A stretch of 60,968 nt of DNA, filler included. It is 5 parts of 5 records of this genome, joined end to end, with 100 filler letters (N's around TTAATTAATTAA, not from the genome) between each part and the next. Parts side by side here need not be neighbours in the genome. Positions count along the whole stretch, not along the records: positions 41,655 to 60,968 come from DRR723986_9061; 4 more parts are not named here. The stretch is one strand, 5' to 3'. Shown one piece after another: positions 41,746 to 60,968 of the stretch. Every line of letters starts with the position of its first letter. Positions within the stretch are counted from its first letter, which is position 1. The notes under the pieces are model-generated. The model was given only the letters and a program-made list of their open reading frames with translations. It had not been told where the DNA came from and did no database searches. The position numbers and the translations under genes are program-made.

Positions 41746-42192
41746 TCAGACCTGCAATTGCCTGAGCCATCCTTTAATCCGCTTGGCGTTTACCCCAAGA
41801 TCTGACCGGCCAAACCGCAAACGGCCATAAACCTCCAAGTAGGGTTGCCCATCCGGCGTTTGGTAGATGCCGATTGTGGTATAGTCTGGAAAGCCGACAA
41901 CCTTGGAGCGCGACACATAGGTCAGCTGTTTGTCTGCCAATGATCCGGCCAAAAGCGCCGTGCGCGGCTCTGCGCGGATGATCCGGTCCAACGCGGCCAG
42001 CGCGGCTGTTCCGTCATTCTCGACCGCCTGCTGCCAGATGTAGAAACCTTTGCCGCGCTTTTCTTCAATCCCTTGAAAGGACGCGGCTTTGTGCCACTTT
42101 CCCTGATCCGACGGGGCCAGCCGTACGTAGGCCGCAGCCCCCACAACCAGCAGCAGAACCACCCAAATGAACATCACAATTTCCTTTTTCAT
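41746..42192 (-). CDS. DUF1499 family protein
   Basis: RSKVVGFPDY and RLRFGRSDLGVNAKRI motifs. Confidence 0.85.
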   Translation of the reverse strand: MKKEIVMFIWVVLLLVVGAAAYVRLAPSDQGKWHKAASFQGIEEKRGKGFYIWQQAVENDGTAALAALDRIIRAEPRTALLAGSLADKQLTYVSRSKVVGFPDYTTIGIYQTPDGQPYLEVYGRLRFGRSDLGVNAKRIKGWLRQLQV

Positions 42193-42207
42193 ATTGTTTG
42201 GCAGAGC

Positions 42208-44117: not shown

Positions 44118-44118
44118 G

Positions 44119-45288
44119 TTATTTCCCCGCGACAGGCTGTGCCCGCTCCACCAGACGCGCAAAGAAGGACGCGCCAATGGGGGCGATATCATCGTTGAAA
44201 TTGTACTTGGGATGGTGCACGCCCGCGCCCTCACCCTGCCCGAGCATCAGATAGGCACCGGGCCGTGCCTCAAGCATGTAGGAAAAATCCTCGGCGCCCA
44301 TCACCGGCGGAAAATCCGCCTCAACCCCGGCCTCACCGGCGACTTCGCCTGCCACATCCACCGCAAAGCCTGCCTTGCCCGGATCATTGACCGTGGGCGG
44401 ATAGCCAAATTCAAAATCCAGCTCTGCCTTGAGGTCAAAACTGGCCGCGTGACCGTCCACAATCGCCTGCATCCGGCGCACGACCATGGCCTGCACATCC
44501 TTGTCAAAGGTGCGCACAGTGCCGTTGATATAGACCTCTTCGGGGATCACATTGTCGGTGGTGCCAGTGTGAATTTGTGTTGTAGAAACAACCAATTGCT
44601 GACGTGGGTCAACGTTACGGCTGACGATGGTTTGCAAGCTTTGCACGATCGCGCAGGCCGCCACGACGGGATCAACACAATCATGCGGGCGGGCGCCATG
44701 GCCGCCCTTGCCTGTGAGGTTGATCGTAAAGGTATCCGCCGCCGCCATGATCGGCCCCGGCGTGGTGTGAAAGCGGCCAAACTCAAGCCCCGGTGCATTG
44801 TGCAATGCAAAGACCTGCTGAACGTTGAAACGGTCCATGACGCCCTCTTGCACCATAATCTCACCGCCGCCGCCAAACTCTTCGGCCGGTTGGAACATCA
44901 ACGCCACGCGCCCCGCAAAATTGCGGGTCTCCGCCAGATATTTCGCCGCCCCAAGCAGCATCGCCGTATGCCCATCATGTCCGCAGGCATGCATTTTTCC
45001 CTCATGGGTACTGGCGTAAGGCACACCGGTCTCTTCCGTGATCGGCAGCGCATCCATATCCGCGCGCAGGCCCATGGTTGGCCCATCGCCCTGCCCGTTG
45101 ATGATCGCCACGATGCCGGTTTTGGCGATTCCCTCGTGGATCTCATCGACCCCAAACTCGCGCAAACGCTCCGCCACAAAGGCAGCAGTCTGATGGCATT
45201 CCAACCCCAATTCAGGGATCGTGTGCAGATGTTGACGCCACTTGGCCATGTCAGCACTGAAATCGGCGATGCGGTTGACGACAGGCAT
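44119..45288 (-). CDS. M20D amidohydrolase (hippurate hydrolase-like)
   Basis: LRADMDALP, MHACGHDGH, QPAEE and GAEDF motifs. Confidence 0.92.
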   Translation of the reverse strand: MPVVNRIADFSADMAKWRQHLHTIPELGLECHQTAAFVAERLREFGVDEIHEGIAKTGIVAIINGQGDGPTMGLRADMDALPITEETGVPYASTHEGKMHACGHDGHTAMLLGAAKYLAETRNFAGRVALMFQPAEEFGGGGEIMVQEGVMDRFNVQQVFALHNAPGLEFGRFHTTPGPIMAAADTFTINLTGKGGHGARPHDCVDPVVAACAIVQSLQTIVSRNVDPRQQLVVSTTQIHTGTTDNVIPEEVYINGTVRTFDKDVQAMVVRRMQAIVDGHAASFDLKAELDFEFGYPPTVNDPGKAGFAVDVAGEVAGEAGVEADFPPVMGAEDFSYMLEARPGAYLMLGQGEGAGVHHPKYNFNDDIAPIGASFFARLVERAQPVAGK

Positions 45289-45352
45289 GGGGTGGACTCC
45301 TTGGTTCAGAATGGATCAGGCTGCATCTGACACCACCAAGGACAAAGCTGCA

Positions 45353-46171
45353 ATGCCCGACACCCTGATTAACGATCAATCCGCAGGTATCGAACGCCTG
45401 CTAGAGATCATGCGCCGCCTGCGTGACCCCGACACCGGATGCCCTTGGGACATCGAACAGGATTTTGACAGCATCGCCCCCTACACCATTGAAGAGGCTT
45501 ACGAAGTTGCCGATGCGATCCAGCGGCGCGACTGGCCGGAGCTTGAAGGTGAACTGGGTGATTTGCTCTTGCAGACGGTCTATCATACGGCGATGGGCGA
45601 AGAGGCCGGGCATTTTAGCTTTCAATCCGTGGTGCAGAACATCAGCGATAAAATGGTGGCGCGGCACCCGCATGTCTTTGGCGATGAATCGCGGGACAAA
45701 TCCGCCGAACAGCAGACCGTCGATTGGGAAGCGATCAAAGCGCAGGAACGTGCGGGAAAAGCGCAGAAAGGCGCTTTGGACGGGGTCGCGATTGGCCTTC
45801 CTGCCTTGCTGCGGGCTTATAAATTGCAAAAACGGGCAGCGCGGGTCGGGTTTGATTGGCCTGAAACCACCCAGGTGCTCGACAAGATCAAGGAAGAGGC
45901 TGCCGAGCTGGTTGAGGCGCAAAATGAGCTGACGCCAGATGAGATCGAAGAGGAATTTGGCGATCTGATGTTTGTGATGGCCAACCTTGGCCGTCACCTC
46001 AACCTTGACCCGGAGGCCGCCCTGCGCCGCGCCAATGCCAAGTTCACCAAACGCTTTGAAGGCGTTGAGGCAAAGCTGGCCGAACGGGGAAAAACCGCCG
46101 CTGAAAGCGATCTGGCCGAAATGGATGCCCTTTGGGACTTGGTCAAAAAGGAAGAACGGCCACAAACCTAA
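45353..46171 (+). CDS. mazG: Nucleoside triphosphate pyrophosphohydrolase
   Basis: GCPWD, EEAYEV, ELGDLLLQ, RHPHVF and VGFDW motifs. Confidence 0.95.
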   Translation: MPDTLINDQSAGIERLLEIMRRLRDPDTGCPWDIEQDFDSIAPYTIEEAYEVADAIQRRDWPELEGELGDLLLQTVYHTAMGEEAGHFSFQSVVQNISDKMVARHPHVFGDESRDKSAEQQTVDWEAIKAQERAGKAQKGALDGVAIGLPALLRAYKLQKRAARVGFDWPETTQVLDKIKEEAAELVEAQNELTPDEIEEEFGDLMFVMANLGRHLNLDPEAALRRANAKFTKRFEGVEAKLAERGKTAAESDLAEMDALWDLVKKEERPQT

Positions 46172-46272
46172 GACCGCTTTTCGCCGACACGCGGGAAGAG
46201 ATCACACCGCATCTTTCGCTTTGGCGGCAACTGCCTTATCCCTGACCTCTACGTTGTTACAAGGAACCGCCC

Positions 46273-47214
46273 ATGCCCGCCCGTAAGATCATCATCGACA
46301 CAGACCCCGGACAGGATGACGCTGTCGCGATCCTTCTGGCTCTGGCCAGCCCCGAAGACATGGAGCTTCTGGGCATTACCTGTGTGGCAGGCAATGTGCC
46401 GCTTGATCTGACCTCGAAGAACGCGCGGATCATCTGCGAATTGGCCGGGCGCAGCGATGTCAAAGTCTTTGCCGGTTGTGATCGTCCCCTTGGCCGCGAT
46501 CTGGTCACGGCGGAACATGTACATGGCAAAACCGGCCTCGATGGCCCCGCTCTTCCCGATCCGGTCATGCCTTTGCAAGACGGTCACGCGGTGGATTTCA
46601 TCATTGATCAACTGCGGGAATATGCCCCTGGCACGATCACATTGTGCCCGCTTGGCCCGCTCACCAACATCGCCACAGCCCTGCAAAAGGCCCCCGATAT
46701 CGCCAATCGCATCGCCAAGATCGTGTTGATGGGCGGCGGCTATTTCGAGGGGGGAAACATCACACCAGCGGCGGAATTCAACATTTACGTCGATCCGCAA
46801 GCGGCTGATATCGTGTTCAAATGTGGCGCTCCTATTGTGGTGATGCCGCTTGATGTCACCCATAAAGCATTGGTGACAAAACCGCGCAACGATGCCTTTC
46901 GCAATATCGGGACGCCTGTGGGCACTGCCGTGGCAGAAATGACCGATTTCTTTGAACGCTTCGACAAGGAAAAATACGGATCAGCCGGTGCGCCGCTGCA
47001 TGATCCCTGCGTCACCGCCTATCTGATCAACCCCGATTTGTTCACGGGCCGTCACATCAACGTCGAGATCGAAACCCAATCGGAATTGACCATGGGCATG
47101 ACCGTTGCCGACTGGTGGCGCGTGACGGATCGTCCGGCCAACGCGACATTCATGGGAGATATCGATGCGGATGGTTTCTTTGCGCTGCTGACCGACAGAT
47201 TGGCCCGGTTGTGA
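46273..47214 (+). CDS. Nucleoside hydrolase
   Basis: DTDPGQDDA, AEFNIYVDP and PLHDP motifs. Confidence 0.94.
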   Translation: MPARKIIIDTDPGQDDAVAILLALASPEDMELLGITCVAGNVPLDLTSKNARIICELAGRSDVKVFAGCDRPLGRDLVTAEHVHGKTGLDGPALPDPVMPLQDGHAVDFIIDQLREYAPGTITLCPLGPLTNIATALQKAPDIANRIAKIVLMGGGYFEGGNITPAAEFNIYVDPQAADIVFKCGAPIVVMPLDVTHKALVTKPRNDAFRNIGTPVGTAVAEMTDFFERFDKEKYGSAGAPLHDPCVTAYLINPDLFTGRHINVEIETQSELTMGMTVADWWRVTDRPANATFMGDIDADGFFALLTDRLARL

Positions 47215-47660
47215 GCGCCGCCCTCACCCTTGCCAAGCCGGAACATCTGGACAAGATCACCACGCTTGCTGCCGCGTTTCATGCCGAAGAAGGCATCGAA
47301 ATGTCGAATGAGGCCCGCCGCGCGGGTCTGGCCCCGTTGCTGGATGGTATCCCGCACGGCGCCGCCTATCTGATCGGGCCGCCACGCGCGCCAATTGGCT
47401 ATATCGTCGTTTGTTTCGGCTGGTCCGTGGAGTTTGGCGGTCTGGACGCCATCATTGACGAATTGTTCATCCGCCCCGGTGTGCGTGGACGCGGGATTGC
47501 CACTGAAACCTTGATGTCCCTGCCGCGCGCCTTGGCTGGCGCTGGTTTGCGGGCCATCCACCTTGAGGTCGACAGCGGCAATGAGGCCGCGGTGAAACTT
47601 TACAAACGGGCGGGATTTGTCACCCGCGACCGCTATATGTTCATGTCAAAGACACTGTGA
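47211..47660 (+). CDS. GNAT acetyltransferase
   Basis: RPGVRGRGIA and N..AVKLYKRAGF motifs; GTG start overlaps the upstream stop. Confidence 0.85.
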   Translation: MSAALTLAKPEHLDKITTLAAAFHAEEGIEMSNEARRAGLAPLLDGIPHGAAYLIGPPRAPIGYIVVCFGWSVEFGGLDAIIDELFIRPGVRGRGIATETLMSLPRALAGAGLRAIHLEVDSGNEAAVKLYKRAGFVTRDRYMFMSKTL

Positions 47661-47669
47661 AGGATCGCC

Positions 47670-49079
47670 ATGACCATCGCCTTTGACAACTCCTATGCCC
47701 AATTGCCAGACGCTTTCTTCACACGGCTGGCACCCACTGCAGTTAAATTACCTAAATTGCTGGCTTTTAACGATGATCTGGCCAAGGTGATGGGCATTGA
47801 CACAGGTGATCTGGCGGATTTGGCGCAAGTATTTGGCGGCAATCAAACGCCCAAAGGTGCCGCGCCCCTGGCGCAGCTTTATGCGGGGCATCAGTTTGGC
47901 AACTTCAATCCGCAATTGGGTGACGGACGTGCAATCCTGCTGGGCGAAGTGATCGGCAGCGACGGCATCCGCCGCGATATTCAACTCAAAGGCTCCGGCC
48001 AGACCCCCTATTCCCGCATGGGCGATGGCCGCGCCTGGCTGGGCCCGGTGCTGCGCGAATATGTGGTGAGCGAGGCCATGCATGCGCTCGGCATCCCCAC
48101 CACGCGGGCGCTCGCTGCTGTGTCCACCGGCGAAGACATCTGGCGCGAACAAGGTGCCCTGCCCGGCGCGGTTCTGACACGGGTCGCGCAAAGCCACCTG
48201 CGCGTCGGCACCTTTCAGGTTTTTGCCCATCGCGGCGAGGTGGATCATCTGCGCATCCTCACCAACTACGCGATTAAGCGGCATTATCCCGATGCCGCCG
48301 GCCCGATGGATCTGCTGCGCAAGGTTTGCGCCGCACAGGCCGCGTTGATCCCGGCATGGATGTCCGTTGGGTTCATTCACGGGGTGATGAACACCGACAA
48401 TTGCACCATCAGCGGCGAAACGATTGATTATGGGCCCTGCGCCTTTATGGATGGGTTTCATCAAAACCGGGTGTTCAGCTCCATTGATCAACAGGGGCGC
48501 TATGCCTTTGGCAATCAGCCCAACATCGCAGTCTGGAACATGGCACAGCTGGCCACCAGCCTGATCCAATTGTTTGAGAACAAAGACGCCGCCATCGAAG
48601 AGGCGACCGAGATCGTGCATGCCATGCCCACCCAAATTGAGGACCATTGGCTGAAACGCTTTGCCGCCAAGATCGGCATCTCCAAACCACAGCCCGAAGA
48701 CAGCGATCTGATTGATGGGCTGTTGGGACTGATGCAAAGTGATGGCGCAGATTTTGCAAACACCTTCAACTCACTTTGCAAACCAAGCGCCCGCGATCAA
48801 TTTGCAAACCGCGAAGCCTTTGATTCTTGGGCAGAAAATTGGCAGAACCGGATCAAAGATGAGCCGGACCCGCAGGCCAGAATGCAAACTGCAAACCCGC
48901 AGATTATCCCGCGCAATCACCGGATCGAACAGATGATCGAAGCCGCAGTTGCAGGTGATATGGCCCCGTTCCATCGCTTGATGACAGCGCTGGCCACACC
49001 CTTTGAAAACACCGATCCGGACCTGCAGCGCCCGCCAAGCCAAGAAGAGATCGTACCAGCCACGTTCTGCGGCACTTGA
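47670..49079 (+). CDS. selO: Protein adenylyltransferase SelO/YdiU
   Basis: YAGHQFG..LGDGR, QLKGSG.TPYSR.GDGR and HGVMNTDN motifs; TFCGT end. Confidence 0.94.
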   Translation: MTIAFDNSYAQLPDAFFTRLAPTAVKLPKLLAFNDDLAKVMGIDTGDLADLAQVFGGNQTPKGAAPLAQLYAGHQFGNFNPQLGDGRAILLGEVIGSDGIRRDIQLKGSGQTPYSRMGDGRAWLGPVLREYVVSEAMHALGIPTTRALAAVSTGEDIWREQGALPGAVLTRVAQSHLRVGTFQVFAHRGEVDHLRILTNYAIKRHYPDAAGPMDLLRKVCAAQAALIPAWMSVGFIHGVMNTDNCTISGETIDYGPCAFMDGFHQNRVFSSIDQQGRYAFGNQPNIAVWNMAQLATSLIQLFENKDAAIEEATEIVHAMPTQIEDHWLKRFAAKIGISKPQPEDSDLIDGLLGLMQSDGADFANTFNSLCKPSARDQFANREAFDSWAENWQNRIKDEPDPQARMQTANPQIIPRNHRIEQMIEAAVAGDMAPFHRLMTALATPFENTDPDLQRPPSQEEIVPATFCGT

Positions 49080-49100
49080 TCTTCATTTGGCCAAAAAAAC

Positions 49101-49997
49101 TCAAGTGCCAGGGCGGCGTCCGGGCTTGCGGTTGATCAGGTAAATCCCCGCTGCCACCAACGCCAATGCGGCCCAGATCGACAGCGCCACCTCTTCGGAC
49201 AGGATCAACCAGCCGCAGAGCACCGAAAACACCGGCGACAGGAAACTGAACGAGGCGACAGAAGATGCCGGATAGATCGTCATCAGCCAGAACCAGATCA
49301 GATAGCCGAAACTGGCCACCGCGAGGATTTGGAACAACAGACCCGCAATATGGATCGGTTCCACTTCGCGCATGAGCGGGCCAAAAAGCGGCGCAATCAA
49401 AAGCAGGATCGGCGCGGACACTGCCACCTGGCAAATCAGCTGTTGTGCGGGCGGCACCTCGCTGAGCGGGGTGAGGCGCACACACAGAACAATCCCCGCC
49501 CAGCACAGCGCCGCCAGCAGCGACAAAAGATCCCCCGTCCAACTGGCCGCACCGCTGTCTCGGTCCAGCAGTGCCAAGGCCACTCCGGCCATCGCCAGCG
49601 CCAGGCCGACCCCGCGCCCCGTCGTCAGCCGCTCACCGGGCAACAGAAAATGCGCCATCAGCGCCAGCCAGACCGGCATTGAATAAAAGATCACGGAAAC
49701 CCGGCTGACCGTGGACAGGTCCAGCGCGGTGAAGGCACTGGTGAATTCCAGCGCAAAGAGCAGCCCCGACAAAAGACCGCCGACCCAGGCCCGCCGCGGC
49801 AGGCCGATACGCAAATCGCGCAGATACATCCAGACCAGCAGCACCAGCACCGCCCCTGCCGAGCGCAGGCCAGCGGAAAAGACGGGGCTGAACCCGCCCG
49901 ATGTCACTTTGATCACCACCTGGTTAAAACCAAGATGAAAGGCAAAAGCTGTCAGCGCCACAGCGCCGATGAGATCCATATGTGATTTGCGGTCCAT
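49101..49997 (-). CDS. DMT/EamA family transporter
   Basis: About 10 TM segments in two EamA-like halves (LLPGERL, LILSEEV). Confidence 0.85.
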   Translation of the reverse strand: MDRKSHMDLIGAVALTAFAFHLGFNQVVIKVTSGGFSPVFSAGLRSAGAVLVLLVWMYLRDLRIGLPRRAWVGGLLSGLLFALEFTSAFTALDLSTVSRVSVIFYSMPVWLALMAHFLLPGERLTTGRGVGLALAMAGVALALLDRDSGAASWTGDLLSLLAALCWAGIVLCVRLTPLSEVPPAQQLICQVAVSAPILLLIAPLFGPLMREVEPIHIAGLLFQILAVASFGYLIWFWLMTIYPASSVASFSFLSPVFSVLCGWLILSEEVALSIWAALALVAAGIYLINRKPGRRPGT

Positions 49998-50144
49998 CGG
50001 GCCAGAAACGGGCAGCAGCGCGGTGAAGTCAATGTGCAAACGCCCGCCCGTGCCGCAACCTGGCGGAATTTCCCCTCGCATCAGGCGTCAGATGTGCCAC
50101 AGTCCGTGCAAACCAAAACGGGAGATCTGCACATGAGTTTGATG

Positions 50145-50227
50145 ATAATGCCGAGGTTTGGATTATGCCGACCTGATAAAAACAGTCCCACGAAGCTTGG
50201 CAGATGCCCTGCATACGCGCGGCATAG
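50145..50227 (+). repeat. RIT left end: inverted repeat and box array
   Basis: ATAATGCCGAGGTTTGGATTATGCCG (50145-50170), plus an inward-facing box CGGCATAG at 50220-50227. Confidence 0.9.
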
Positions 50228-50253
50228 TCAAGGATGCTCAGCGAGGCGAAAGA

Positions 50254-50748
50254 TCAGGCTTCGTTAGGATCAGGCCCAAGCAACGCTATGAATTCCGAGA
50301 ACGTGTTTGCGACTGGATGGAGGAACAAAGCCTCTTCGTAGTCGTCCTCGTCTTGAAAGCCTGCGTCGTTTACCTTTAGCGTCTCGTTTGCGGGGCGCGC
50401 CAAGATGTAAATTCTGCCATGCATTGGGCCTTCCCGAAGATCCATGTAAATGCCTTGCGAGCCTGTGTAGGCGATCTGAAGCAGTTGCGCATGGATGGAT
50501 TCCGAAAAATTGTTGTAAGGATCGTCTTCGATGGAGTTCAAAGGATTACTGGTAAGACCATAAATTTCCTCAATGCTCAGTAAGATAAGGCCTTGCACCT
50601 CGAAAAAGGCATTGGAATCTGCAGGGCGACCACCGTTGTATTTTAGAAGAAACGCTCTGTAGTCCGCGGGTAAATTCACGGTTCTGACTGCCTCAAATCC
50701 ATCGATCTTTGCCTCATCAATTGGTTCATTCTGCCTCTCGAAGATCAT
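50254..50748 (-). CDS. SMI1/KNR4 family immunity protein
   Basis: LPADYRAFLLKYNGG and VANTFSEFI motifs; ATGA-coupled to the toxin stop. Confidence 0.88.
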   Translation of the reverse strand: MIFERQNEPIDEAKIDGFEAVRTVNLPADYRAFLLKYNGGRPADSNAFFEVQGLILLSIEEIYGLTSNPLNSIEDDPYNNFSESIHAQLLQIAYTGSQGIYMDLREGPMHGRIYILARPANETLKVNDAGFQDEDDYEEALFLHPVANTFSEFIALLGPDPNEA

Positions 50749-52448
50749 TGATTTCTCGCTCTGGATGCGCCGCCTTGGTGGAAGAAGTCACGGTTTACTA
50801 CTCTGGGGACAAGCTGCATCGTACGTGCATCTTCAACATGGTGCCAAACCCAGTCTTCCGGTGCGTCGCGTCCCCATTCCGGCTTTCCAGCGGCTATATT
50901 TGCGCGACGGTTGTCGATGCGGCCATTCCCAGAAACATCAATCTCAACGGACCGCACACCACTTGGATGGGTCATGAACGGACGGAAATCGGGGTATCCG
51001 TCCGGGTATTCGACGGAAACCCGTTGCGGCTGTCCCATAATGTCGATGTCCGCCGAGTAGCGGAAATGGCCCTCTGGCATCAGTTCAACTGTGCCACCCC
51101 GGTTGATCCACTTCTCGAACTTGGGCGAGTACGGGCCAGCATTGGTCACACCTTCGAAGTCCGGATCGGTTCTAAGCCGGTCGAGTGTGAGTTCTTCGGG
51201 TGCTGATAGCCCCTCGGCGCGGCGCCGAACGCGACCAAGGGCGGCAACACCGGCCAGGACTTCCGGCAACCCATAACCCAAAGCGCCTGCATAATCGCCT
51301 ACAGCGATCCTATCACGGAACGGCTCCACCATCGCTTCGGGCAAAGAAGATGGATCGGCATAGATAGCCTCAGCAACGCGACGCAGGTCATCCAGACGTA
51401 TGTCCGGAATACTTCGTATCGCTTCAGCGATATCCACCAGCGATGTGGCGGTGCCCCCGACGAACCGGTCAATTGGGCTGCGGACTTGGGTGAGTGCCTG
51501 ATCGATAAGTTCATTTGACGCTCCGGCAGTTGCCAGAGTGGCTGCCGCCGCCAGGGCGTCCGGGTTTGATATCCCGAAGACGGATGCGAGACGTTCCAGT
51601 CCGTCGCCGCGGCGCTCCAGAAGATTGAGGAAGGCGTCAGGGTTGTCTTTGATGGCGTCTCCAAGCTGATGGAACGCTTTGGCCAAGTCGCCTTGCGTCT
51701 GAACGTCGAGCATCTCGCCGTCAATCGTGATGCCGGGCTCTGGATAGAAACCATCGCGTAGCCGTTCAACAAACGTCTGCGGCCGGACGCCGGTGCCAGC
51801 GGTAAAATCGTCTCCGAGATCACTCAGGAACCTGTCAAGCAAACCAATGGGTCCCAGCAGGCCAATGTCGGCACCGGGCGGCACAGGGCGCGCGGAACAA
51901 CGACAGTTTGACGCCTCGCCAGGCTTCTCGTCATTCGAGTCCCATCGATACACGGCACCGTTGCGAGCAGAATGCGAGGCCCGGACTTTCTCATCGCCTA
52001 CGGTTTGCCAAACGTACTGTTCAATGCCGAGGTCACGTTGCCTGATCTCATTGATCAGACCAGCAAAGCTCCGCAGCAGTCGCTCTTCCATGGCTTGCCG
52101 GACTGGTCGTAGCCTTTGAGGATGCGTGTTCCATTCGGCCCAGATTGCGGAAAGCCTTTGGTCCCACTGGCTGAGGGTCTCATTGACGGCACCAGAGATG
52201 CCGGGCAGGTCTTGTTCTTCCAAGGGCGGGTCATAGGCGTCCGCCAATGCGTCCAGCAGCATGTCGGCATTGTCGCGGCCGATGGAATCAAGCTGGTCTT
52301 CAAAATTGCGACGTAGTGCGCTGTAGTCTGGGAAGCTATTTTTAACAGACCAGTTAACCCGTCGCCCGAGAACCCGCCCGTCGGACTTCCGAAGCAGAAA
52401 CTCGCCTTCTCCGCCGGTGCGGATAGAGTCTGAAAATGATTGATGCAT
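50745..52448 (-). CDS. MuF (phage Mu F / SPP1 gp7 head morphogenesis) domain polymorphic toxin with C-terminal WHH (HNH/EndoVII) nuclease
   Basis: YVWQTVGDEKVRASH...PGEASNCRC (MuF); GYPDF...WVWHHVED..MQLVP..N..FFHQGG (WHH nuclease). Confidence 0.87.
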   Translation of the reverse strand: MHQSFSDSIRTGGEGEFLLRKSDGRVLGRRVNWSVKNSFPDYSALRRNFEDQLDSIGRDNADMLLDALADAYDPPLEEQDLPGISGAVNETLSQWDQRLSAIWAEWNTHPQRLRPVRQAMEERLLRSFAGLINEIRQRDLGIEQYVWQTVGDEKVRASHSARNGAVYRWDSNDEKPGEASNCRCSARPVPPGADIGLLGPIGLLDRFLSDLGDDFTAGTGVRPQTFVERLRDGFYPEPGITIDGEMLDVQTQGDLAKAFHQLGDAIKDNPDAFLNLLERRGDGLERLASVFGISNPDALAAAATLATAGASNELIDQALTQVRSPIDRFVGGTATSLVDIAEAIRSIPDIRLDDLRRVAEAIYADPSSLPEAMVEPFRDRIAVGDYAGALGYGLPEVLAGVAALGRVRRRAEGLSAPEELTLDRLRTDPDFEGVTNAGPYSPKFEKWINRGGTVELMPEGHFRYSADIDIMGQPQRVSVEYPDGYPDFRPFMTHPSGVRSVEIDVSGNGRIDNRRANIAAGKPEWGRDAPEDWVWHHVEDARTMQLVPRVVNRDFFHQGGASRARNQ

Positions 52449-52560
52449 GCAAGACGCCCGGAACTAGGTTGGGCGTCAATGTCTCAAGATTTGGTTAACA
52501 GGCTGTAACCAATGCGTTCTCTGGTCACACTGCCTCTTCGTTGAAACGAAGGAGGTCAAA

Positions 52561-53799
52561 ATGGCAAAAGATAAACCAGATCAAACAGTTCAAAGCACTC
52601 TGGCCGAGGCTGCCGCCAATTTTGCGGCGATGATCACAGCCCAGGGATATTGCACTCACACCGTCGACAGCTATGCGCGCAACGCTCGGAGGTTTGCGGC
52701 CAAGCTCGAGTGTTCCGGTGTTACGCTCATCAAGTTGGATGACCAAACCGCAGAAGAACTGATCTCTCAGATCACAACACAAATTTGTGCGTCAGGTCGA
52801 AGCTACGTAAAGCACCAATTGGAACGATTCCGGGACTATTTGATCGGTGAACACGGGGCGCCGCCGCGTGAGCCGGAGCCAATCGACACGTCGCCCAGAG
52901 CAGTCCTAAAACGTGATTACGAACCCTGTCTTCGCGTCCAGCGCGGCCTGTCAGAGGAAACCATCTACCATTGCCTGCGGTTCTTTGATCGGTTCCTGAC
53001 AGCGAAGTTCGGTGCCGGTCTAGGTGATCTCAATAGCATCAAGCCCGACGACATTACGGGCTTCATACTTCGATTGCGCGAGAAGCAAAACGCGCCGCGG
53101 GACAAGACAGGCCCGTCGCATCTTCGCAACCTCTTCCAGTTCCTGTTCTGGAGCGGAAAGACAACTCGCAACCTGAGCAGTGCTGTCCCAAAAGCAAGAC
53201 AGCCAAAGCCGACAGGTATTCCAAGATATCTGGAGCCGGAAGAGGTCAATCGTCTTATCGAGGTGGTGCGCGACCACAAGAAAACGGGTCGACGCAACTA
53301 TGCGATGCTGATGCTGATCGCCCGGCTTGGCCTTCGAGCGCCGGAAGTGATGGCCATTGAACTGGATGATATCGACTGGCGGGCCGGAGAAATCCTGATC
53401 CGAGGCAAGAGGCAGTGGCACGACCGAATGCCAATGTCGCCGGAGGTCGGCGAGGCGATTGTCGATTACATCAAGAATGAGCGCCGGGGAGCGGACCGCG
53501 CGCTGTTCGTCTCGGTGAAGCCGCCATTCAAGAGGTTCAAGGACGCGCAAATCCTGCGCTGGATATTGCGCGACGCCTACGACGCGACCGGCATCAGTCC
53601 ACCGCAAGCCTATATTGGCAGCCACATTCTCAGGCATAGCCTGGCCACCGACATGCTGCGAAAGGGCGCGTCGTTGGCCGAGATCAGCGACGTTTTGCGC
53701 CACCGGTCGGCGATGACCACAACGATCTATGCGCAGCATGATGTTGATGCCCTGCGCTCGATCTCGCGGCCTTGGCCAACTTCGGGAGATGCCCAATGA
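52561..53799 (+). CDS. ritA: Tyrosine recombinase RitA
   Basis: LGLRAPE, RGK, HILRH, LRH and TTIY catalytic motifs; GGAGG RBS. Confidence 0.88.
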   Translation: MAKDKPDQTVQSTLAEAAANFAAMITAQGYCTHTVDSYARNARRFAAKLECSGVTLIKLDDQTAEELISQITTQICASGRSYVKHQLERFRDYLIGEHGAPPREPEPIDTSPRAVLKRDYEPCLRVQRGLSEETIYHCLRFFDRFLTAKFGAGLGDLNSIKPDDITGFILRLREKQNAPRDKTGPSHLRNLFQFLFWSGKTTRNLSSAVPKARQPKPTGIPRYLEPEEVNRLIEVVRDHKKTGRRNYAMLMLIARLGLRAPEVMAIELDDIDWRAGEILIRGKRQWHDRMPMSPEVGEAIVDYIKNERRGADRALFVSVKPPFKRFKDAQILRWILRDAYDATGISPPQAYIGSHILRHSLATDMLRKGASLAEISDVLRHRSAMTTTIYAQHDVDALRSISRPWPTSGDAQ

Positions 53800-54740
53800 A
53801 GACGCTTTCCCAAAGACTTGATGAATATCTGGCCCTGCGCCGCTCGATGGGGTTTGATCTCTCCTTTGACGAACGGGTTCTGCGCAAGTTCGCCAACTTT
53901 GGCGATGAGAATGGGTTCGATCGGATCACGACGCCCTTGTTCCTCGACTGGAAAGCGAACTACGGCGGCGCCGACGACAACACATGGTCTCGACGTCTTG
54001 GATTGGTGCGCACGTTCGCCATCTGGCTAGTGGAGCATGATGATCGGACCGAGATCCCGTCCAGCCAACTCGTCATCGGTCGATACCGAAGGCGTGTCCC
54101 CTACATCTACGCGCCCACGCAGGTTGCAGATATTGTTGCTGGGGCCGGTCGATTGCCGTCACCCTACGGTCTCCGTGCCGCATTGTGGCAGACCCTGTTC
54201 GGCTTGATCGCGGTAACGGGGATGCGCGTGAGCGAAGCCTTGTCGCTTGATCGGCAGGATGTCGATCTGGATCGGGCCATGCTCACGCTCAGAAACACCA
54301 AAAACGGCAAGAACCGCCAGCTACCTGTCAAAGGGGACACCGTTGCCCAACTTGCACACTATGCCGGATTGCGAGATCGGCTGGTTGCCCAGCAAGCCTC
54401 GCGGTTCTTCATCAAAGAAGACGGTCAACCGGCAGGGGATTGCGGGGCGCGCTACAACTTCGCGCAGGTCAGCAGGAACATCGGCCTTCGGTCACAGCAA
54501 GCCTTCAACCGCCACGGGCATGGACCACGCATCCATGATTTGCGGCACACATTTGCTGTTCACACCATCCTGGACTGGTTCCGGGATGGACGGGACATTG
54601 AGACTGAAATGTACAAGCTCAGCACGTATCTCGGCCATACCGAGCCAAAGCACACGTTCTGGTACATCGAGGCCGTACCCGAGCTGATGCAGTTGGCCGC
54701 GGAGCGTGCAGAACGACGGGCTTTGGAGGGCGCATCATGA
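53796..54740 (+). CDS. ritB: Tyrosine recombinase RitB
   Basis: YLALRRSMGF N-terminus; TGMRVSE, TKNGK, HDLRH, YLGH and TFWY motifs; ATGA overlap. Confidence 0.88.
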   Translation: MKTLSQRLDEYLALRRSMGFDLSFDERVLRKFANFGDENGFDRITTPLFLDWKANYGGADDNTWSRRLGLVRTFAIWLVEHDDRTEIPSSQLVIGRYRRRVPYIYAPTQVADIVAGAGRLPSPYGLRAALWQTLFGLIAVTGMRVSEALSLDRQDVDLDRAMLTLRNTKNGKNRQLPVKGDTVAQLAHYAGLRDRLVAQQASRFFIKEDGQPAGDCGARYNFAQVSRNIGLRSQQAFNRHGHGPRIHDLRHTFAVHTILDWFRDGRDIETEMYKLSTYLGHTEPKHTFWYIEAVPELMQLAAERAERRALEGAS

Positions 54741-55735
54741 TCGCAACCTATCCCTTGCCCGTCTACGTGCAGCGGTTCTTCACCGAGCGGCTGTTGACCC
54801 AGATGCGGGCAAGCCCAAACACGATTGCCAGCTATCGCGACACGTTCCGTCTCTTGCTGAAATACGCGGAGGCGCAATCCAAGCTACCGCCGACTGACCT
54901 GCACGTCGCCCACGTAGACGCCGACATGATCGGCCAGTTCCTGACCTTCTGCGAGGAGGAACGCGGCAACAGCGCGCGCAGCCGGAACACGCGCCTCGCG
55001 GCCATTCGATCCTTCTTCAAATACGTCGCGGGCTGTGAGCCCCAGTTGTTGCATCACTGCCAGAAGGTGCTGGCGATGCCCTCCAAGCGGCATGAAAAAC
55101 GTGTCGTGGACTTCCTGACCCGTGACGAAATGGAGGCCTTGCTGAAGGCACCAGATCAATCGACCTGGTTTGGTCGGCGAGATCGGGTCCTGCTCCTCAC
55201 AATGCTCCAGACCGGTTTGCGTGTGTCAGAGGTAATCGGTCTTCGCGTTGGCGATGTCGAGCTCGGCACCGGAGCGCACCTCAGATGCATGGGCAAAGGC
55301 CGAAAGGAGCGCGCAACGCCGCGACGAGCGGACAGTCGGGATGCGTTGAGATCCTGGCTTGCCCAGATTGAAGCTGGGCCCAGCGATCCTTTGTTTGCAA
55401 CGATCCGTGGCAGGCCACGCAGCAGAGATGCGGTTGAGCGAATTGTTCGAAAACACGCGGACACCGCCGCCTCGAACAGTTCCACCTTCAGATTGAAACG
55501 CGTCACGCCCCATGTTCTGCGCCATACCGCCGCAATGCAACTTCTGCAGAGTGGTGTTGACCGAACAATCATTGCTCTTTGGCTAGGCCATGAATCGATT
55601 GAGACGACGCAGGTTTATATCCATGCCGATATCGAACTGAAGGAAAGAGCGATGGCGCTGACGAAGCCGGTCGAAAGCACTGGCGGACGCTATCGACCCG
55701 GAGATGAACTGCTCGCCTTCCTGGAAGCACTCTGA
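54737..55735 (+). CDS. ritC: Tyrosine recombinase RitC
   Basis: SPNTIASYRD, TGLRVSE, GKGRK, HVLRH, WLGH and TQVY motifs; ends LLAFLEAL; ATGA overlap. Confidence 0.88.
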   Translation: MIATYPLPVYVQRFFTERLLTQMRASPNTIASYRDTFRLLLKYAEAQSKLPPTDLHVAHVDADMIGQFLTFCEEERGNSARSRNTRLAAIRSFFKYVAGCEPQLLHHCQKVLAMPSKRHEKRVVDFLTRDEMEALLKAPDQSTWFGRRDRVLLLTMLQTGLRVSEVIGLRVGDVELGTGAHLRCMGKGRKERATPRRADSRDALRSWLAQIEAGPSDPLFATIRGRPRSRDAVERIVRKHADTAASNSSTFRLKRVTPHVLRHTAAMQLLQSGVDRTIIALWLGHESIETTQVYIHADIELKERAMALTKPVESTGGRYRPGDELLAFLEAL

Positions 55736-55736
55736 A

Positions 55737-55850
55737 TTATGCCGACATGCCGCGCCGATCTTCTCGTTGAACAACAGGTAATGAGGACCGGCGCGGCATA
55801 ATCCAAACCTCGGCATTATGGCAATTATGCCGACATCGGCATAAGGCCCA
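55737..55850 (-). repeat. RIT right end: box array, inverted repeat and terminal palindrome
   Basis: TTATGCCG (55737), CGGCATAATCCAAACCTCGGCATTAT (55794-55819), and TTATGCCGACATCGGCATAA (55825-55844). Confidence 0.9.
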
Positions 55851-56733
55851 AAACACTGGCCAAAGTGGCCGTTGGCGTGGCCTTGGCAAAGGGCGCAAGT
55901 TCGATGATGAAGAAGGGCGGCAGCAACCAAGGCGCGGGCAGCGGCCTTGGTGGCTTGCTGGGCGGTCTGGCCGGCGGCAGCAGCGCGTCCGGCGGCGGGC
56001 TGAACGACATGTTGGGCGGTTTGCTGGGCGGTGCGGGCGGCAGCAGCCGCGCAGGCAGCGCAGGCGGTTTGGGCGGCCTATTGGAACAACTGGGCGGCTC
56101 TGGCGGCAGCGGGGGCGCAGGTGGGCTGGGCGGTTTGCTTGGCGGGTTGGCAGGCGCTGGCGGTGCGGGCGGCTTGTTGGCCGGGATGACCAAGGCGATG
56201 GAGCAACGCCCCGCAAGCAATACATCCAGTTTTGGTGCGGTCCTGAATTCTCAATTCGACGCCACGCCAGAGCCGGAGATTGAACCGTCACAGGAACAGG
56301 AGGCCACCGCCGCCCTGATGCTGGCTGCGATGATCCAAGCGGCCAAATCCGATGGCACCTTTGATGAAGCGGAAAAGGACAAGCTGCTGGGCCAGTTGGG
56401 TGATGTGGATGCGCAAGAGGCCGCATTTGTGCAGCAGCAGTTGCAAGCGCCCGTGGATATCAACGGTTTGGTGGCGCAAACCCCGCAGGGCATGGGCCCG
56501 CAGGTCTATGCGATGTCGGTGCTCGGCATTGATCTGGACACTCAGGATGAGGCGCAATATTTGCACCAGCTGGCGCAGGGTCTTGGAATGCAACCGGCGC
56601 AAGTCAATGACATTCATGATCAGATGGGTGTGCCGTCGCTTTATACCTGATGTCGAGGGTAGGCTGATAAAGAAAAACCTGCGCAACGGGCTTTCGTCGC
56701 GCAGGAGTATTTTTGGCCAAAAAGGGCGCTGGG

Positions 56734-58059
56734 TCAGGCGGCTTTCTGACCGCCCGGTTTGCCGCCACCGCCGCCGCGCCGGCGTCTGCGGCCTGCGCCG
56801 GGTTTACCGGGTGCTCCGCCGCCACCGCCGCCGCCTTGCGGACGGTTTCCGCCACCTCCGCCACCGCCACCTGGGCGGCCACCGCGTCCGCGGCCCCTGC
56901 CCTTGGGTTTGTCGGGGGCGTCAACGGCCTCCCACGGGCGACCCGAGGCCACGGGGATGCTGATGCCCATGGTTTTCTGGATCGCTTTCAATTCGCCCAT
57001 TTCATCCGGTGCGCAGAAGGCCACAGCGGCGCCGTCCTTGCCCGCGCGTGCGGTCCGGCCAATGCGGTGGACATAGTTGTCCGGCACGTTTGGCAAATCG
57101 TAGTTGTAGACGTGTTTGACGTCCGGGATGTCCAAGCCCCGCGCCGCGACATCCGTCGCGACCAAAACCGTCACGTCACCCGATTTGAAGCCCGCGATGG
57201 CGCGGTCGCGCTGTCCTTGGGATTTGTTGCCGTGGATCGAGGCTGCATCAAAACCCGCCTTGACCAACGTTTTCATCAACTTTTCAGACCCGTGTTTGGT
57301 GCGGCCAAAGACCAGCGCGCGTTCACCGCGGTGTTGGGCCAGAAGTTCAATCAACAGGTTGGTCTTTTCGGCCTTGGCGATGAAATGTACCTCTTGGGTG
57401 ACTTTGTCTGCCGCCTTGCCCGGAGGCGACACTTCGATGCGGATCGGGCTGCGCAGATAGCTGTTTGCGATTTCGTTCATCAGTTTCGGCATGGTGGCCG
57501 AGAACAACATGGTCTGGCGTTCCTTGGGGATCACCGAGGAGATTTTGCGCAGATCGTGGATAAAGCCCATGTCGAGCATCTGATCAGCCTCATCGAGCAC
57601 CAGAAACGTGGTTTCCTCAAGGCGCACGGCGCGGCGGTCCATCAGATCCAGCAGGCGGCCCGGTGTGGCCACCAGCAGATCCACCCCTTTGGCAAGGCGG
57701 TTGATCTGCGGATTGATCGACTGACCGCCCACAACCATCTGCACCTTGAGCGGGGTGCGTTCGCAAAACCCCTTGAGGTTCTGCATGATCTGTTGGGCCA
57801 GCTCGCGCGTTGGGGCCAGCACCAGACCGCGTACTGATTTGGGGCTGGGCCGCTGGGCCATCTCAAGCATCTGCGCCACCAACGGCACACCAAAGGCCGC
57901 GGTTTTGCCGGTGCCGGTTTGCGCCAGACCCATCACATCGCGCCCGTTCAGTGCATGTGGGATGGCTTGTTTCTGGATCGGGGTCGGGTCCTTGAGACCC
58001 ATTTCATTCAGACGCGCCACCAGTTTGGGTGGCAGGTCCATCATATCAAAATCGCTCAT
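56734..58059 (-). CDS. rhlE: DEAD-box RNA helicase (RhlE-like)
   Basis: AQTGTGKT, PTRELA, LDEAD, SAT and HRIGRTAR motifs; Gly/Arg-rich tail. Confidence 0.9.
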   Translation of the reverse strand: MSDFDMMDLPPKLVARLNEMGLKDPTPIQKQAIPHALNGRDVMGLAQTGTGKTAAFGVPLVAQMLEMAQRPSPKSVRGLVLAPTRELAQQIMQNLKGFCERTPLKVQMVVGGQSINPQINRLAKGVDLLVATPGRLLDLMDRRAVRLEETTFLVLDEADQMLDMGFIHDLRKISSVIPKERQTMLFSATMPKLMNEIANSYLRSPIRIEVSPPGKAADKVTQEVHFIAKAEKTNLLIELLAQHRGERALVFGRTKHGSEKLMKTLVKAGFDAASIHGNKSQGQRDRAIAGFKSGDVTVLVATDVAARGLDIPDVKHVYNYDLPNVPDNYVHRIGRTARAGKDGAAVAFCAPDEMGELKAIQKTMGISIPVASGRPWEAVDAPDKPKGRGRGRGGRPGGGGGGGGNRPQGGGGGGGAPGKPGAGRRRRRGGGGGKPGGQKAA

Positions 58060-58418
58060 CTTACGTCTTTCCAACGCCTTGAGGCATCGCCCCGGCGCTT
58101 TTTCTTATTGCATCACGCCTCTCAAGGCGCAGGCAGGGTCACGCAAAACAGATCGCAGGCGCGGGCCATATGCCAACACCTGTCTGATGCGTTTGGCCCC
58201 ACGCGTGATTTTGGGAACAAGGGGCAAAGCTTACAAGCCGGACTGTTGGGGCATATCCCCGGCACCGGAACTGCTCACGCGGCAGAAGCATCGCCTGAGC
58301 GGTCAAATGGGGGTTTGCGGCGCAAAAGTCAACCGCTGCGGCCAAAAGCCTGTAGCGCTGCGGCGCGAACACCGCTAAGACGGGGTCTCTTTGACGATCT
58401 GGCGACCGGGGGCGGCCC

Positions 58419-58835
58419 ATGAGCACATCCATCATCACCCGCTGCGAAAGCATGGGATTGCGTATGACAGGCCAGCGCCGCATCATTGCGCAGGTCATCG
58501 AAGACAGCCGCGACCACCCGGATGTCGAAGAATTGTTTACACGGGCCTCTGCCCTTGATGGCGCGATTTCCATTGCCACGGTGTACCGCACGGTCAAATT
58601 GTTCGAAGAGGCCGGCATTCTGGACAAATTGGAATTTGGCGACGGGCGCGCGCGGTATGAAGATGCAGAGCGGGATCACCATGACCATCTGATTGATCTC
58701 AATTCCGGCAAGGTCATCGAATTTGTCGATGCCGAGATTGAGCAATTGCAGGAACGCATCGCCAAAAAGCTTGGATATGAGCTGCGCGGGCACCGGATGG
58801 AGCTTTATGGGGTGCCGATCAAAAAGGGTGACTAA
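58419..58835 (+). CDS. fur: Fur family transcriptional regulator
   Basis: GLRMTGQRR, HPDVEEL, ISIATVYRT and HHDHLID motifs. Confidence 0.92.
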   Translation: MSTSIITRCESMGLRMTGQRRIIAQVIEDSRDHPDVEELFTRASALDGAISIATVYRTVKLFEEAGILDKLEFGDGRARYEDAERDHHDHLIDLNSGKVIEFVDAEIEQLQERIAKKLGYELRGHRMELYGVPIKKGD

Positions 58836-59887
58836 GGCGCGCCTTCTTTGCGCCGGTGCCGCGCCAGCATCGCGGGCAAGACAAAGCTGAGCACAACAAG
58901 CCGCATGATATGGCAGGCCGCGACAAAGCCGGGGATCACGCCCAGAACCGCACCCATCGCGATCATGGTCTCAAAGCCACCGGGCGCAAAGGCCACCAGC
59001 ACATGCGCCAAGGGCATTCCCAGCGCCAGACCAACCGGCACAGCGCCAAGCGCGGCCAGCCCGACCGCCACGCCGGTGATCGCCAGTCCGGCTGTCAGCC
59101 CACTGGTCAGCCGCGCCAAGGTTACCCCTGAAAACCGTGTTCCAATCAGCCCGCCCAGCACCAGATAGGCCGGCAGGATCAACCATGCCGGCAAAACACC
59201 GGGGGTCAGTTCCGTCACATGCCCAATCGCGCTGACTGCCATACCGCCCAAGAGCAGCGGCGCAGGCACGTTCAAACGCATGAATATATAGCCAACCCCA
59301 GCGGACAATGCCGCCAGAATGCCAATCACAAGCAGGCTCATCTGATCGCCTTGCGGCGCGACATTGCCGGACACTTCGATGCCCATGGCCAAGGCAATGA
59401 ACGGCACCACAATCGTCAGCGACAAAAGCCGCACCGATTGGGTGATCGAGATCCGCGCCACGTCAGAGCCGCCTTCGGTCGCAATAGCCATAACAAAGCT
59501 CAGATGCCCCGGCGCAGAGGCGAGGATGGCGGATCTTGGATCGAACCCGAACCCGCGCACCAGCATGATCCGGCATAGGATCAAAATCGCCCAGATGATC
59601 AGCGCCATAAAGACAAACGCCAATGGCCAACGCAGCATCGCCGCCAGGGCATCGGCATCAAATCCCGCGCCAACGGCGATCCCCAACAGCAGAAAACACG
59701 CATCTCGCAACCGCGTGTCAACACCCGTGGATAGCCCCCCCAAACCCGCCAGGGTCACCGCAATTGCAGGGCCAAGCAGCATGTAAACCGGCGCATTGAT
59801 CGCCCATCCCAGAGCCGCGCCCGCAATGGCGATGGCAAGTGTGACTGCAGTGATTTGAGGAGAGTTCCCGAACATGTCTTTTTGCAT
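58832..59887 (-). CDS. AbrB family membrane protein (putative ammonia monooxygenase-like family)
   Basis: Duplicated halves with SAPG..Q.VRL and FAPGG...H.MRL; start uncertain. Confidence 0.8.
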   Translation of the reverse strand: MQKDMFGNSPQITAVTLAIAIAGAALGWAINAPVYMLLGPAIAVTLAGLGGLSTGVDTRLRDACFLLLGIAVGAGFDADALAAMLRWPLAFVFMALIIWAILILCRIMLVRGFGFDPRSAILASAPGHLSFVMAIATEGGSDVARISITQSVRLLSLTIVVPFIALAMGIEVSGNVAPQGDQMSLLVIGILAALSAGVGYIFMRLNVPAPLLLGGMAVSAIGHVTELTPGVLPAWLILPAYLVLGGLIGTRFSGVTLARLTSGLTAGLAITGVAVGLAALGAVPVGLALGMPLAHVLVAFAPGGFETMIAMGAVLGVIPGFVAACHIMRLVVLSFVLPAMLARHRRKEGAP

Positions 59888-59981
59888 GCCTCCTGCTATC
59901 ATTGGTTGCAGGCAGCTTCCAGCCGCACTTGCCCTTGCTCGCCAAAACCGTCATGGCGGAGAAAAGACTTTTGGCTAGGAT

Positions 59982-60857
59982 ATGAACATGGACAACTTTC
60001 GCGGCGCCGCCCTGATGGTTTTGGCGATGCTGGGCTTTGCCCTTGAGGACATGTTTATCAAGCTGCTGGCCGACGCTTTGCCCATCGGGCAGATCCTGTT
60101 GATGCTGGGCATTGGCGGATCGGCGGTCTTTGGCGCGGTGGTTCTGGCACAGGGCAAATCCCTGTTCACCCGTGAAATGTTGTCCTGGCCCATTCTGGCC
60201 CGCGCCATGGGCGAATTGATTGGCGCGTTGACCTTTGTCTCGGCCATCGTGCTGACCCCGATCTCCAGCGCGTCGGCGATTTTGCAGGCCACACCGCTTG
60301 TGGTGACATTGGGCGCGGCGTTGTTTCTGGGCGAACCGGTGGGCTGGCGGCGCTGGAGCGCGATCTTTGTCGGGCTGTTTGGTGTCTTGCTGATCATCCG
60401 GCCCGGCATGGACAGCTTTGAAATGTTGTCCATTCTGGCGCTGATCGCGGTCTTTGCGCTGGCGCTGCGGGATCTGTCCACCCGCAAGATCCCGCCAAGC
60501 GTGTCCTCGATGCAGCTCAGCTTTGTCGGCTTTGTCTCGGTGCTGCCTGCGGGGGTGATCCTGCTGCTGTTTACCGGTGAAAGCCTTGTCGCGCCGACCT
60601 CTGGCGGCTGGATCAAGGTTGTCTCGGCCATCACCATTGGCCTGTTTGCCTATTACGCCATCGTCGCCGCCACGCGGGTCGGCGACATCGGATTTGTCAC
60701 GCCTTTCCGCTATACAAGGCTGTTGTTTGCGCTGGTGGCCGGGGTCGTGGTTTTTGACGAATCCCCCGATACGCTGACCCTGCTTGGCGCTGCGATCATC
60801 GTGGCATCGGGCATCTACACCGTCTGGCGCGAGCGCAAAATCAGGCCGCTACAGTAA
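59982..60857 (+). CDS. DMT/EamA family transporter
   Basis: FLGEPVGWRRW, IIRPG and PFRY motifs. Confidence 0.88.
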   Translation: MNMDNFRGAALMVLAMLGFALEDMFIKLLADALPIGQILLMLGIGGSAVFGAVVLAQGKSLFTREMLSWPILARAMGELIGALTFVSAIVLTPISSASAILQATPLVVTLGAALFLGEPVGWRRWSAIFVGLFGVLLIIRPGMDSFEMLSILALIAVFALALRDLSTRKIPPSVSSMQLSFVGFVSVLPAGVILLLFTGESLVAPTSGGWIKVVSAITIGLFAYYAIVAATRVGDIGFVTPFRYTRLLFALVAGVVVFDESPDTLTLLGAAIIVASGIYTVWRERKIRPLQ

Positions 60858-60923
60858 GCCGCCTTTCCAACCCGGCCCTGCCCCGTTAAAACGCATTCGA
60901 CTTGAGCCAAAAGGACATTGCCC

Positions 60924-60968
60924 ATGAGCACGATCATCGACATCCACGCCCGCGAAATCCTCGACAGC
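60924..60968 (+). CDS. eno: Enolase, 5' end only
   Basis: MSTIIDIHAREILDS; AAGGA RBS. Confidence 0.88.
   Translation, partial: MSTIIDIHAREILDS

Follow-up and report, generated by a model that had tools for sequence, protein, structure and literature searches.

Can an element made of three recombinase genes carry other genes along with it, and can a toxin and its immunity gene spread among bacteria in this way? The question is raised by a locus in a DNA stretch of 60,968 nucleotides (hereafter, the window; five parts of five records of one genome joined by filler letters, of which positions 41,655 to 60,968 come from record DRR723986_9061). At this locus, three tyrosine recombinase genes of the recombinase in trio (RIT) type, ritABC, stand within inverted repeats (IRs) together with the genes of a MuF-WHH nuclease and a SMI1/KNR4 (SUKH) immunity protein. 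RITs have been described as three genes with terminal repeats, and their target specificity and movement are listed as not tested (PMC10214605, PMC3414803). We consider it highly probable that the locus is a cargo-carrying RIT element of 5705 bp which spreads an interbacterial toxin-immunity pair among marine bacteria, which prefers ardC genes as its target, and whose copy in the window occupies a pseudo-site.

Four metagenome runs (X1, X3, X8, and X9), which belong to four studies, supplied assembled contigs for alignment to positions 49500-56500 of the window. One contig of X1, with a depth of 11.6, joins 50144 to 55850 with one letter common at the joint. Because this joint skips exactly the intervening 5705 nt, the limits of the element are 50145-55849, and those given by an earlier note on this DNA (50146-55850) are wrong. 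Contigs of X1 also bridge both junctions of the filled site, a contig of X8 bridges the left junction, and a single 14,669-nt contig of X3 spans the filled site with 44 differences. Since this last contig comes from another study, the locus is real and not a product of misassembly. In X9, a 381-nt contig from a relative (about 92% identical) consists of 49876-50100, 43 diverged letters, and then 55850-55962. Further skips in X1 (from 49933 to 55850, with a depth of 3.7 and a side of 21 letters, and from 53298 to 54433) possibly belong to other organisms or other RIT copies, and some bins of the aligned stretch are without cover in X8 and X9.

Empty sites were also found in relatives. The left flank was searched in 401 genomes of the family to which the Sulfitobacter genome G001 belongs, and 12 loci were fetched. 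The best match (SelO-EamA DNA, 73% identical) was in G001 itself, and in nine of the 12 loci the EamA homologue adjoins a homologue of the DUF533 gene (55865-56650 in the window). Matches to the toxin, the immunity gene, and ritA were found in none of the 12 loci, nor were the IR and the terminal palindrome described below. The earlier note had placed the cargo inside the element, and the exact empty site, the syntenic empty sites, and an equal 5.7-kb unit in other contexts bear this out. These observations support the toxin-immunity pair as a part of the moving RIT unit.

A RitA scan covering one genome per species gave 40 loci, and copies with the same cargo, with different cargo, and without cargo were all found among relatives. 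The copy in Sulfitobacter sp. DFL-14 (L001) aligns exactly over 50145-55821 at 89.4% identity and has unrelated flanks; a contig of a Labrenzia metagenome-assembled genome (MAG; L002) and Roseobacter weihaiensis (L025) have the toxin gene, the immunity gene, and ritA in the arrangement of the window. The whole unit (100% cover, 91.2% identity) is also present within a split ardC gene on the complete circular plasmid p3 of Pukyongiella litopenaei (NZ_CP043621.1), where it has been annotated merely as an HNH endonuclease, a SMI1/KNR4 protein, and three recombinases. In none of the toxin-carrying copies does the left end adjoin ritA; the cargo stays inside. This form of the element therefore occurs in at least four insertion contexts, namely the chromosomal intergenic site of the window and three differing ardC genes (95%, 61-78%, and 38% identical to the ardC of locus L012), and since these contexts differ, the whole unit was inserted at least four separate times. 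The toxin-carrying element is 86-96% identical between genera, compared with 73% for the housekeeping flank, and this higher similarity fits horizontal spread. In a tree of RitA, the toxin-carrying copies group in a single clade with a support of 99/100 (L025, whose ritA has a stop codon, was left out of the tree). Because DNA homology of the window element to other RITs starts only at about 52825-52883, inside ritA, the left ~2.7 kb is specific to the toxin-carrying lineage.

Two additional observations concern Sulfitobacter. On contig C15 of G001, a second toxin-carrying RIT, which is diverged, has left a remnant (L066, 1861-2618) that comprises an ardC 3' half, a degenerate IR with 6 mismatches, and fragments of the immunity protein (58 residues, 59% identical) and of the toxin tail (32 residues). 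At L001, a duplicated left end (7384-7464) lies beside a scaffold gap of 10 Ns, and its outer flank is the reverse complement, with 1 mismatch, of the flank past the right end. The duplicated end means that a paralogous ardC holds a second copy or that the sequenced culture contained both orientations.

The element belongs to the RIT class, having three same-strand recombinases in the order A-B-C, ATGA overlaps, terminal IRs, the catalytic signature, and movement as a unit. The overlaps are at 53796-53799 (ritA/ritB) and 54737-54740 (ritB/ritC), and the ATG at 53796 was taken as the start of ritB because the gene junctions are ATGA overlaps. Short overlaps of 4-8 nt between rit genes, of the ATGA type, have been named as a RIT feature (PMC3414803, PMC2864759), and a RitA with two core-binding domains and a RitC with an additional C-terminal helix are also RIT traits (PMC8138268). 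In the window, RitA has a SAM_1 match at residues 120-198 and a weak SAM_4 match at residues 21-50. By inspection, the HxLRH motif and the C-terminal Tyr are intact in RitA, RitB, and RitC, and the first catalytic Arg was not located in any of the three by the same inspection. The trio is 72-96% identical to the trios in the 40 loci.

The perfect 26-bp terminal repeats claimed earlier were confirmed, the arms being 100% complementary; at up to 3 mismatches, the 26-nt arm is found at just two places in the window, with 0 expected from 100 shuffles. The left repeat (IR_L) contains two direct boxes of 8-9 nt, of the type TAATGCCG / TTATGCCG, and TTATGCCG boxes are found at 50163, 55737, 55794, 55825, and 55837. 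The absence of TTATGCCG boxes between the cargo and ritA, also stated earlier, was confirmed; none was found between 50170 and 55737, and no IR-like sequence is present between the cargo and ritA at up to 6 mismatches. Four TTATGCCG boxes elsewhere (6431, 27102, 29728, and 36616) were set aside, since the chance expectation is 2.35 (standard deviation 1.47).

A structure absent from the earlier description was found beyond the right repeat (IR_R), where a 5-nt spacer (55820-55824), a 20-nt palindrome composed of two inverted boxes (55825-55844), and another 5-nt spacer (55845-55849) follow each other. Both junctions were resolved for 20 elements, and in all 20 the palindrome is situated 5 nt outside exactly one IR and is followed by 5 more nt. 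The 5-nt spacers differ among copies and often equal flanks of the target sites of other copies. In the window, the inner spacer matches the target flank of L027 as its reverse complement, and the outer spacer equals the commonest ardC flank; eight of the 20 elements have an outer spacer that recurs in their present left flank. Coordinates of the features are listed in Table 1.

Table 1. Features of the cargo-carrying RIT element in the window.
Feature	Position	Strand	Remarks
IR_L, left terminal inverted repeat	50145..50170	+	First base is the left element end; homology with L001 starts at 50145
Immunity gene, SUKH/SMI1_KNR4, 164 aa	50254..50748	-	SMI1_KNR4 6.6e-15, SUKH_6 9.4e-09 (Pfam)
Polymorphic toxin gene, 567 aa	50745..52448	-	MuF N-terminal module, central region without family, WHH/colicin-type DNase C-terminus
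Divergent intergenic region, toxin operon / ritABC, 112 nt	52449..52560	.	IR box absent
ritA, tyrosine recombinase, 412 aa, extended N-terminal DNA-binding region	52561..53799	+	Phage_integrase 1.1e-27
ritB, tyrosine recombinase, 314 aa	53796..54740	+	Phage_integrase
ritC, tyrosine recombinase, 332 aa	54737..55735	+	Phage_integrase 3.9e-35
Sub-terminal box TTATGCCG	55737..55744	+	Abuts ritC stop codon; conserved in L001, L002, L003
IR_R, right terminal inverted repeat	55794..55819	-	Perfect complement of IR_L
Asymmetric terminal module	55820..55849	.	Beyond IR_R; 55849 is the final element base

The place between IR_L and ritA is used as a cargo slot also by other members of the lineage. The positions of both IRs could be fixed for 29 elements (the window, L065, and 27 of the 40 loci), and the distance from IR_L to ritA, which is approximate because it runs to the start of the tblastn match, is 160-251 nt in 16 of them and 0.77-7.6 kb in the other 13. 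The annotated cargo is GrpB in L003, EamA with an HTH-WYL regulator in L013, TetR with two genes without known family in L014, a MarR-GNAT fusion in L015, FabMG in L020, genes without known family with a weak Imm1-like match in L026, LysR with an ABC transporter and a HAD hydrolase in L027 (L031 has open reading frames in an identical layout), and OmdA, MFS, a hydrolase, PadR, and a beta-lactamase-fold protein in L036. In seven of these loci (L003, L013, L014, L020, L026, L027, and L036), the entire unit, with its cargo, stands between the two halves of the target gene. Cargo is thus common in the RIT lineage of the window, and the annotated slots hold unrelated genes. Identical RitA sequences are shared by a Hyphomonas MAG and Paracoccus halophilus, both with ABC cargo, and by Thalassobacter and Celeribacter, both with compact elements.

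The apparent cargo of L023 (catalase, VIT1, and an insertion sequence) was not counted, since both flanks are ardC 5' halves and the palindrome is absent; this locus is probably a rearrangement between two copies. In a Pseudomonadales MAG (L033, 9835-16674), two convergent recombinase trios are placed between one pair of IR-like ends over 6.8 kb; the two RITs are either nested or arranged back to back.

The preferred target was recognized from the flanks. When the outer flanks are joined, the HExxH zincin motif is rebuilt in 16 of the 20 junction-resolved elements. The split gene of L012 is broken at profile positions 52 and 56, and because its halves match ArdcN and MPTase-PolyVal, the target is ardC. 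Both target halves were typed as ardC by tblastn in 14 loci, and the palindrome lies beside the 3' half in all 14. The direction of ritABC follows that of ardC in eight of these loci (L003, L007, L008, L012, L013, L014, L017, and L018) and opposes it in six (L001, L009, L011, L020, L036, and L065). Among plasmids, 26 further records carry the RIT part alone (query 2739-5706, 83-86%), including records of Phaeobacter inhibens, P. piscinae, and P. gallaeciensis, and several of these copies adjoin genes annotated as ArdC-like or zincin-like metallopeptidases. Of the 27 plasmids with matches, 21 were typed as conjugative. A scaffold of Mesobacterium pallidum has two RIT copies about 29 kb apart (L021/L022), one between ardC 3' halves with two palindromes and the other between 5' halves with none; such a pattern is expected if the intervening segment has been inverted by recombination between RITs in two ardC genes.

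The four insertions outside the HExxH motif are the window copy and three Pseudomonadales copies. The window copy is in the 77-nt intergenic region between EamA and DUF533. At its site, the hexamer coding for H-E is preserved, again 7 nt away from the crossover, and a few bases to the right 5 nt match. From these letters, we read the window site as a secondary look-alike of the ardC target, that is, a pseudo-site.

The earlier note had described the cargo as a MuF-WHH nuclease and a SMI1/KNR4 gene divergent from ritA, and hidden Markov model matches are present for these domains. In the toxin, Phage_Mu_F (PF04233) matches residues 114-186 (8.2e-10; 39.9 bits against a cut-off of 29.6), and the NCBIfam model TIGR01641 (SPP1 gp7) is matched with 43.4 bits against a curated cut-off of 39.65. 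The C-terminus has a Colicin-DNase match and a WHH match at residues 530-565 (2.9e-12), and residues 482-560 are weakly similar to the Rhs C-terminal toxin chains 8bd1_A and 8h8a_B. W533, H536, and H537 are invariant among five toxin homologues. Among the toxin-carrying copies, the whole toxin is 87-95% identical, and its last ~70 residues and the immunity protein diverge together: for L002, identity falls to ~65% in the toxin tip and to 40% in the immunity protein, with 87% for the whole toxin. What is known of these families suggests that the toxin is a DNase which would be neutralised by the SUKH protein. The intergenic stretch that separates the toxin operon from ritABC shows 91% identity in L001 and L065. 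Within this stretch of the window, 52491-52512 comprises a 7-nt inverted repeat with an 8-nt spacer, which may be an operator or may be due to chance.

To explain these results, we propose the following mechanism. RitA, RitB, and RitC would recognise arrays of boxes at the ends, i.e., the two 26-nt IRs and the terminal palindrome, and would move the whole interior as one unit, most likely via a circular form. At the predicted joint of the circle, IR_R, 5 nt, the palindrome, 5 nt, and IR_L would follow each other and form a nearly mirror-symmetric site of ~82 nt, with the crossover presumably between one spacer and the adjacent IR. Because this site would be symmetric, the orientation of the interior on integration would be arbitrary; the same orientations would also result if the segment between the IRs were inverted once integrated. 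Integration normally takes place in ardC-like anti-restriction genes that plasmids and conjugative elements carry, at the codons for HExxH, and the window copy entered a chromosomal intergenic pseudo-site in which some of the target sequence is preserved. The cargo slot, situated between IR_L and ritA, holds a two-gene operon, encoding the putative interbacterial toxin and its SUKH immunity protein, that spreads with the RIT.

Several points weigh against this explanation. The shorter side of the empty-site joint in X1 has just 21 letters, and the empty form in the metagenome may be a sister strain and not an excision product. No circular junction was found in the assembled contigs of the metagenome runs examined. 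At the window target, nothing matches the overlap region presumed for the element (5-6 nt), and an export or delivery system was not found in the element. RIT transposition has, according to PMC10214605, never been recreated under laboratory conditions.

The function of the toxin-immunity pair can be considered by comparison with its relatives. The toxin was searched in the same 401 genomes with E <= 1e-12, and 23 of them had a match. Two matches are the toxin-carrying element itself (G001 and G343, the latter at the coordinates of the Pukyongiella plasmid), and G310 has a full-length homologue (63%) with an immunity gene (46%) beside a single distant recombinase. About 20 proteins share just the first ~190 residues of the toxin with 47-53% identity. 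Four of these were examined, and their tails are a WHH/Colicin-DNase, an RNase-A-type CdiA-CT (RNAse_A_bac), and two without known family. Since a shared MuF head is combined with varied toxic tails, this is, by its architecture, a polymorphic toxin family of Rhodobacterales. Beside the four relatives, neither ritA or an IR nor phage head genes were found; the neighbours are an integrase and DUF900, DUF932 with SSB and H-NS, or chromosomal genes, and one relative neighbours ScpB, DUF1403, AbiEii, a relaxase, and a coupling protein of a type IV secretion system.

The pair could also be an intracellular addiction or stabilisation module, with which loss of the RIT or of its plasmid would kill the cell. 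We regard this as possible but unlikely. Secretion and delivery genes were found neither in nor beside the element in the window and plasmid copies, the toxin and immunity genes are translationally coupled by an ATGA overlap (the immunity ATG on the toxin stop codon) as in many toxin-antitoxin pairs, and at L025 (10001-11487) the pair has outlasted the recombinases: ritA has a stop codon, ritB ceases to match at residue 92, and neither ritC nor IR_R was found, but the toxin gene (567 aa) is free of stop codons and the immunity gene is intact as well. However, ~470 residues upstream of the nuclease are conserved, of which the first ~190 are those common to the ~20 proteins with differing C-terminal toxins, and such an N-terminal layout is that of trafficked polymorphic toxins and needless for an intracellular addiction toxin. 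In addition, the toxin gene precedes the immunity gene, and the remnant at L066 indicates that both can decay together. In a purely intracellular addiction pair, a long N-terminal module that is kept by proteins with differing tails would be purposeless; for this reason we favour delivery to other cells, by a route which the MuF head would determine.

As to this route, the earlier note had proposed a non-phage vehicle, and the surroundings agree: the window neighbours are housekeeping genes (nucleoside hydrolase, GNAT, SelO, EamA, DUF533, DEAD helicase, and Fur), and those of the plasmid copy are plasmid genes (ParB, DUF3768, and others). Neither the window copy nor the plasmid copy is located in a prophage or among head-morphogenesis genes, as is usual for MuF toxins. 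MuF is among the hub domains of polyvalent proteins in phages and conjugative elements (PMC5512222), and because of this role in conjugative elements, a conjugation-linked route is conceivable. By this reading, which we hold to be quite improbable, the MuF-headed toxins of Rhodobacterales are effectors tied to conjugative elements and not capsid-borne, and the RIT arms conjugative DNA via ardC. The toxin would travel with or alongside DNA through a type IV apparatus and harm recipients or neighbours which do not establish the element and its immunity. The ardC gene is a gene of plasmids and of integrative and conjugative elements, and the ArdC protein itself is transferred with DNA.

Returning to the cargo-carrying RIT, we must ask if the toxin pair could be ordinary DNA from beside a compact RIT, caught by a stray second copy of the left-end repeat in an accidental composite. 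Rearrangements do exist, because L023 and L021/L022 are flanked by two like ardC halves and point to recombination between copies, and L001 has its duplicated left end beside the scaffold gap. But the window has no IR-like sequence beside ritA, the empty site removes exactly the whole element, and the unit was inserted separately at the intergenic site and in the three ardC genes; this reading is largely refuted and very improbable. RIT copies also break assemblies (the contigs L004-L006, of ~3.45 kb, end in IRs), but an assembly artefact joining a RIT repeat to an unrelated toxin locus can be dismissed in view of the spanning X3 contig, the X1 and X8 contigs over the left junction, and the same gene arrangement in a finished circular plasmid.

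Comparison with known systems places the window element near several of them. As in the RITs of Cupriavidus metallidurans CH34 (ritA2B2C2) and Bordetella petrii GI3, whose trios interrupt radC (PMC2864759), the element has an A-B-C trio, ATGA overlaps, and terminal IRs, and its family inserts in a conserved gene of mobile DNA. It differs from RITs as described in its filled 2.3-kb cargo slot, its asymmetric terminal palindrome, and the ardC-targeting of its family. No description of cargo-carrying or ardC-targeting RITs was found in the literature, in which subscription journals were thinly covered. Tn554, strand-biased circularizing integrative elements (SE), and GInt are likewise multi-recombinase, site-specific, and cargo-carrying. 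Since SE and Tn554 take 6 nt of the donor flank to the new site (PMC10214605), the variable 5-nt spacers of the window family recall these carried nucleotides. The recombinase sets, however, differ from the window trio: a fourth protein is required by SE and GInt, and TnpC is present in Tn554. The relationship of RITs to Tn554, SE, and GInt is called unresolved in the literature (PMC10214605).

The toxin resembles the MuF toxins of phages (Jamet et al., 2017, PMC5576092) in having a MuF/SPP1-gp7 head, a variable C-terminal toxin, and an adjacent immunity gene, and nucleases are the commonest C-terminal toxins in that group (PMC5576092). Unlike them, it is alphaproteobacterial and on a recombinase element, and phage head genes are absent nearby. 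A small SUKH gene directly downstream of a nuclease toxin and co-diverging with its tip is also what is seen with the SUKH immunity of polymorphic toxins. SUKH (SMI1/KNR4) immunity proteins are, reportedly, members of polymorphic toxin systems.

Outside the element, the N-terminal part of the DUF533 gene (55947-56173) is a glycine-rich repeat with units of 48-66 nt, and one metagenome contig is without 12 nt at 56013 in this repeat.

RITs are common in bacterial genomes, and the present locus shows that this class can haul cargo. Together with its relatives, it offers ends known to the nucleotide, an empty site found in nature, a joint predicted to be symmetric, a codon of ardC as preferred target, and a slot in which 0.8-7.6 kb of unrelated genes are tolerated. 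The spread of a phage-type MuF polymorphic toxin on a non-phage vehicle broadens the routes by which toxins move and the uses of the MuF module. If the conjugation-linked reading were true, RITs would be general cargo transposons which arm conjugative elements.

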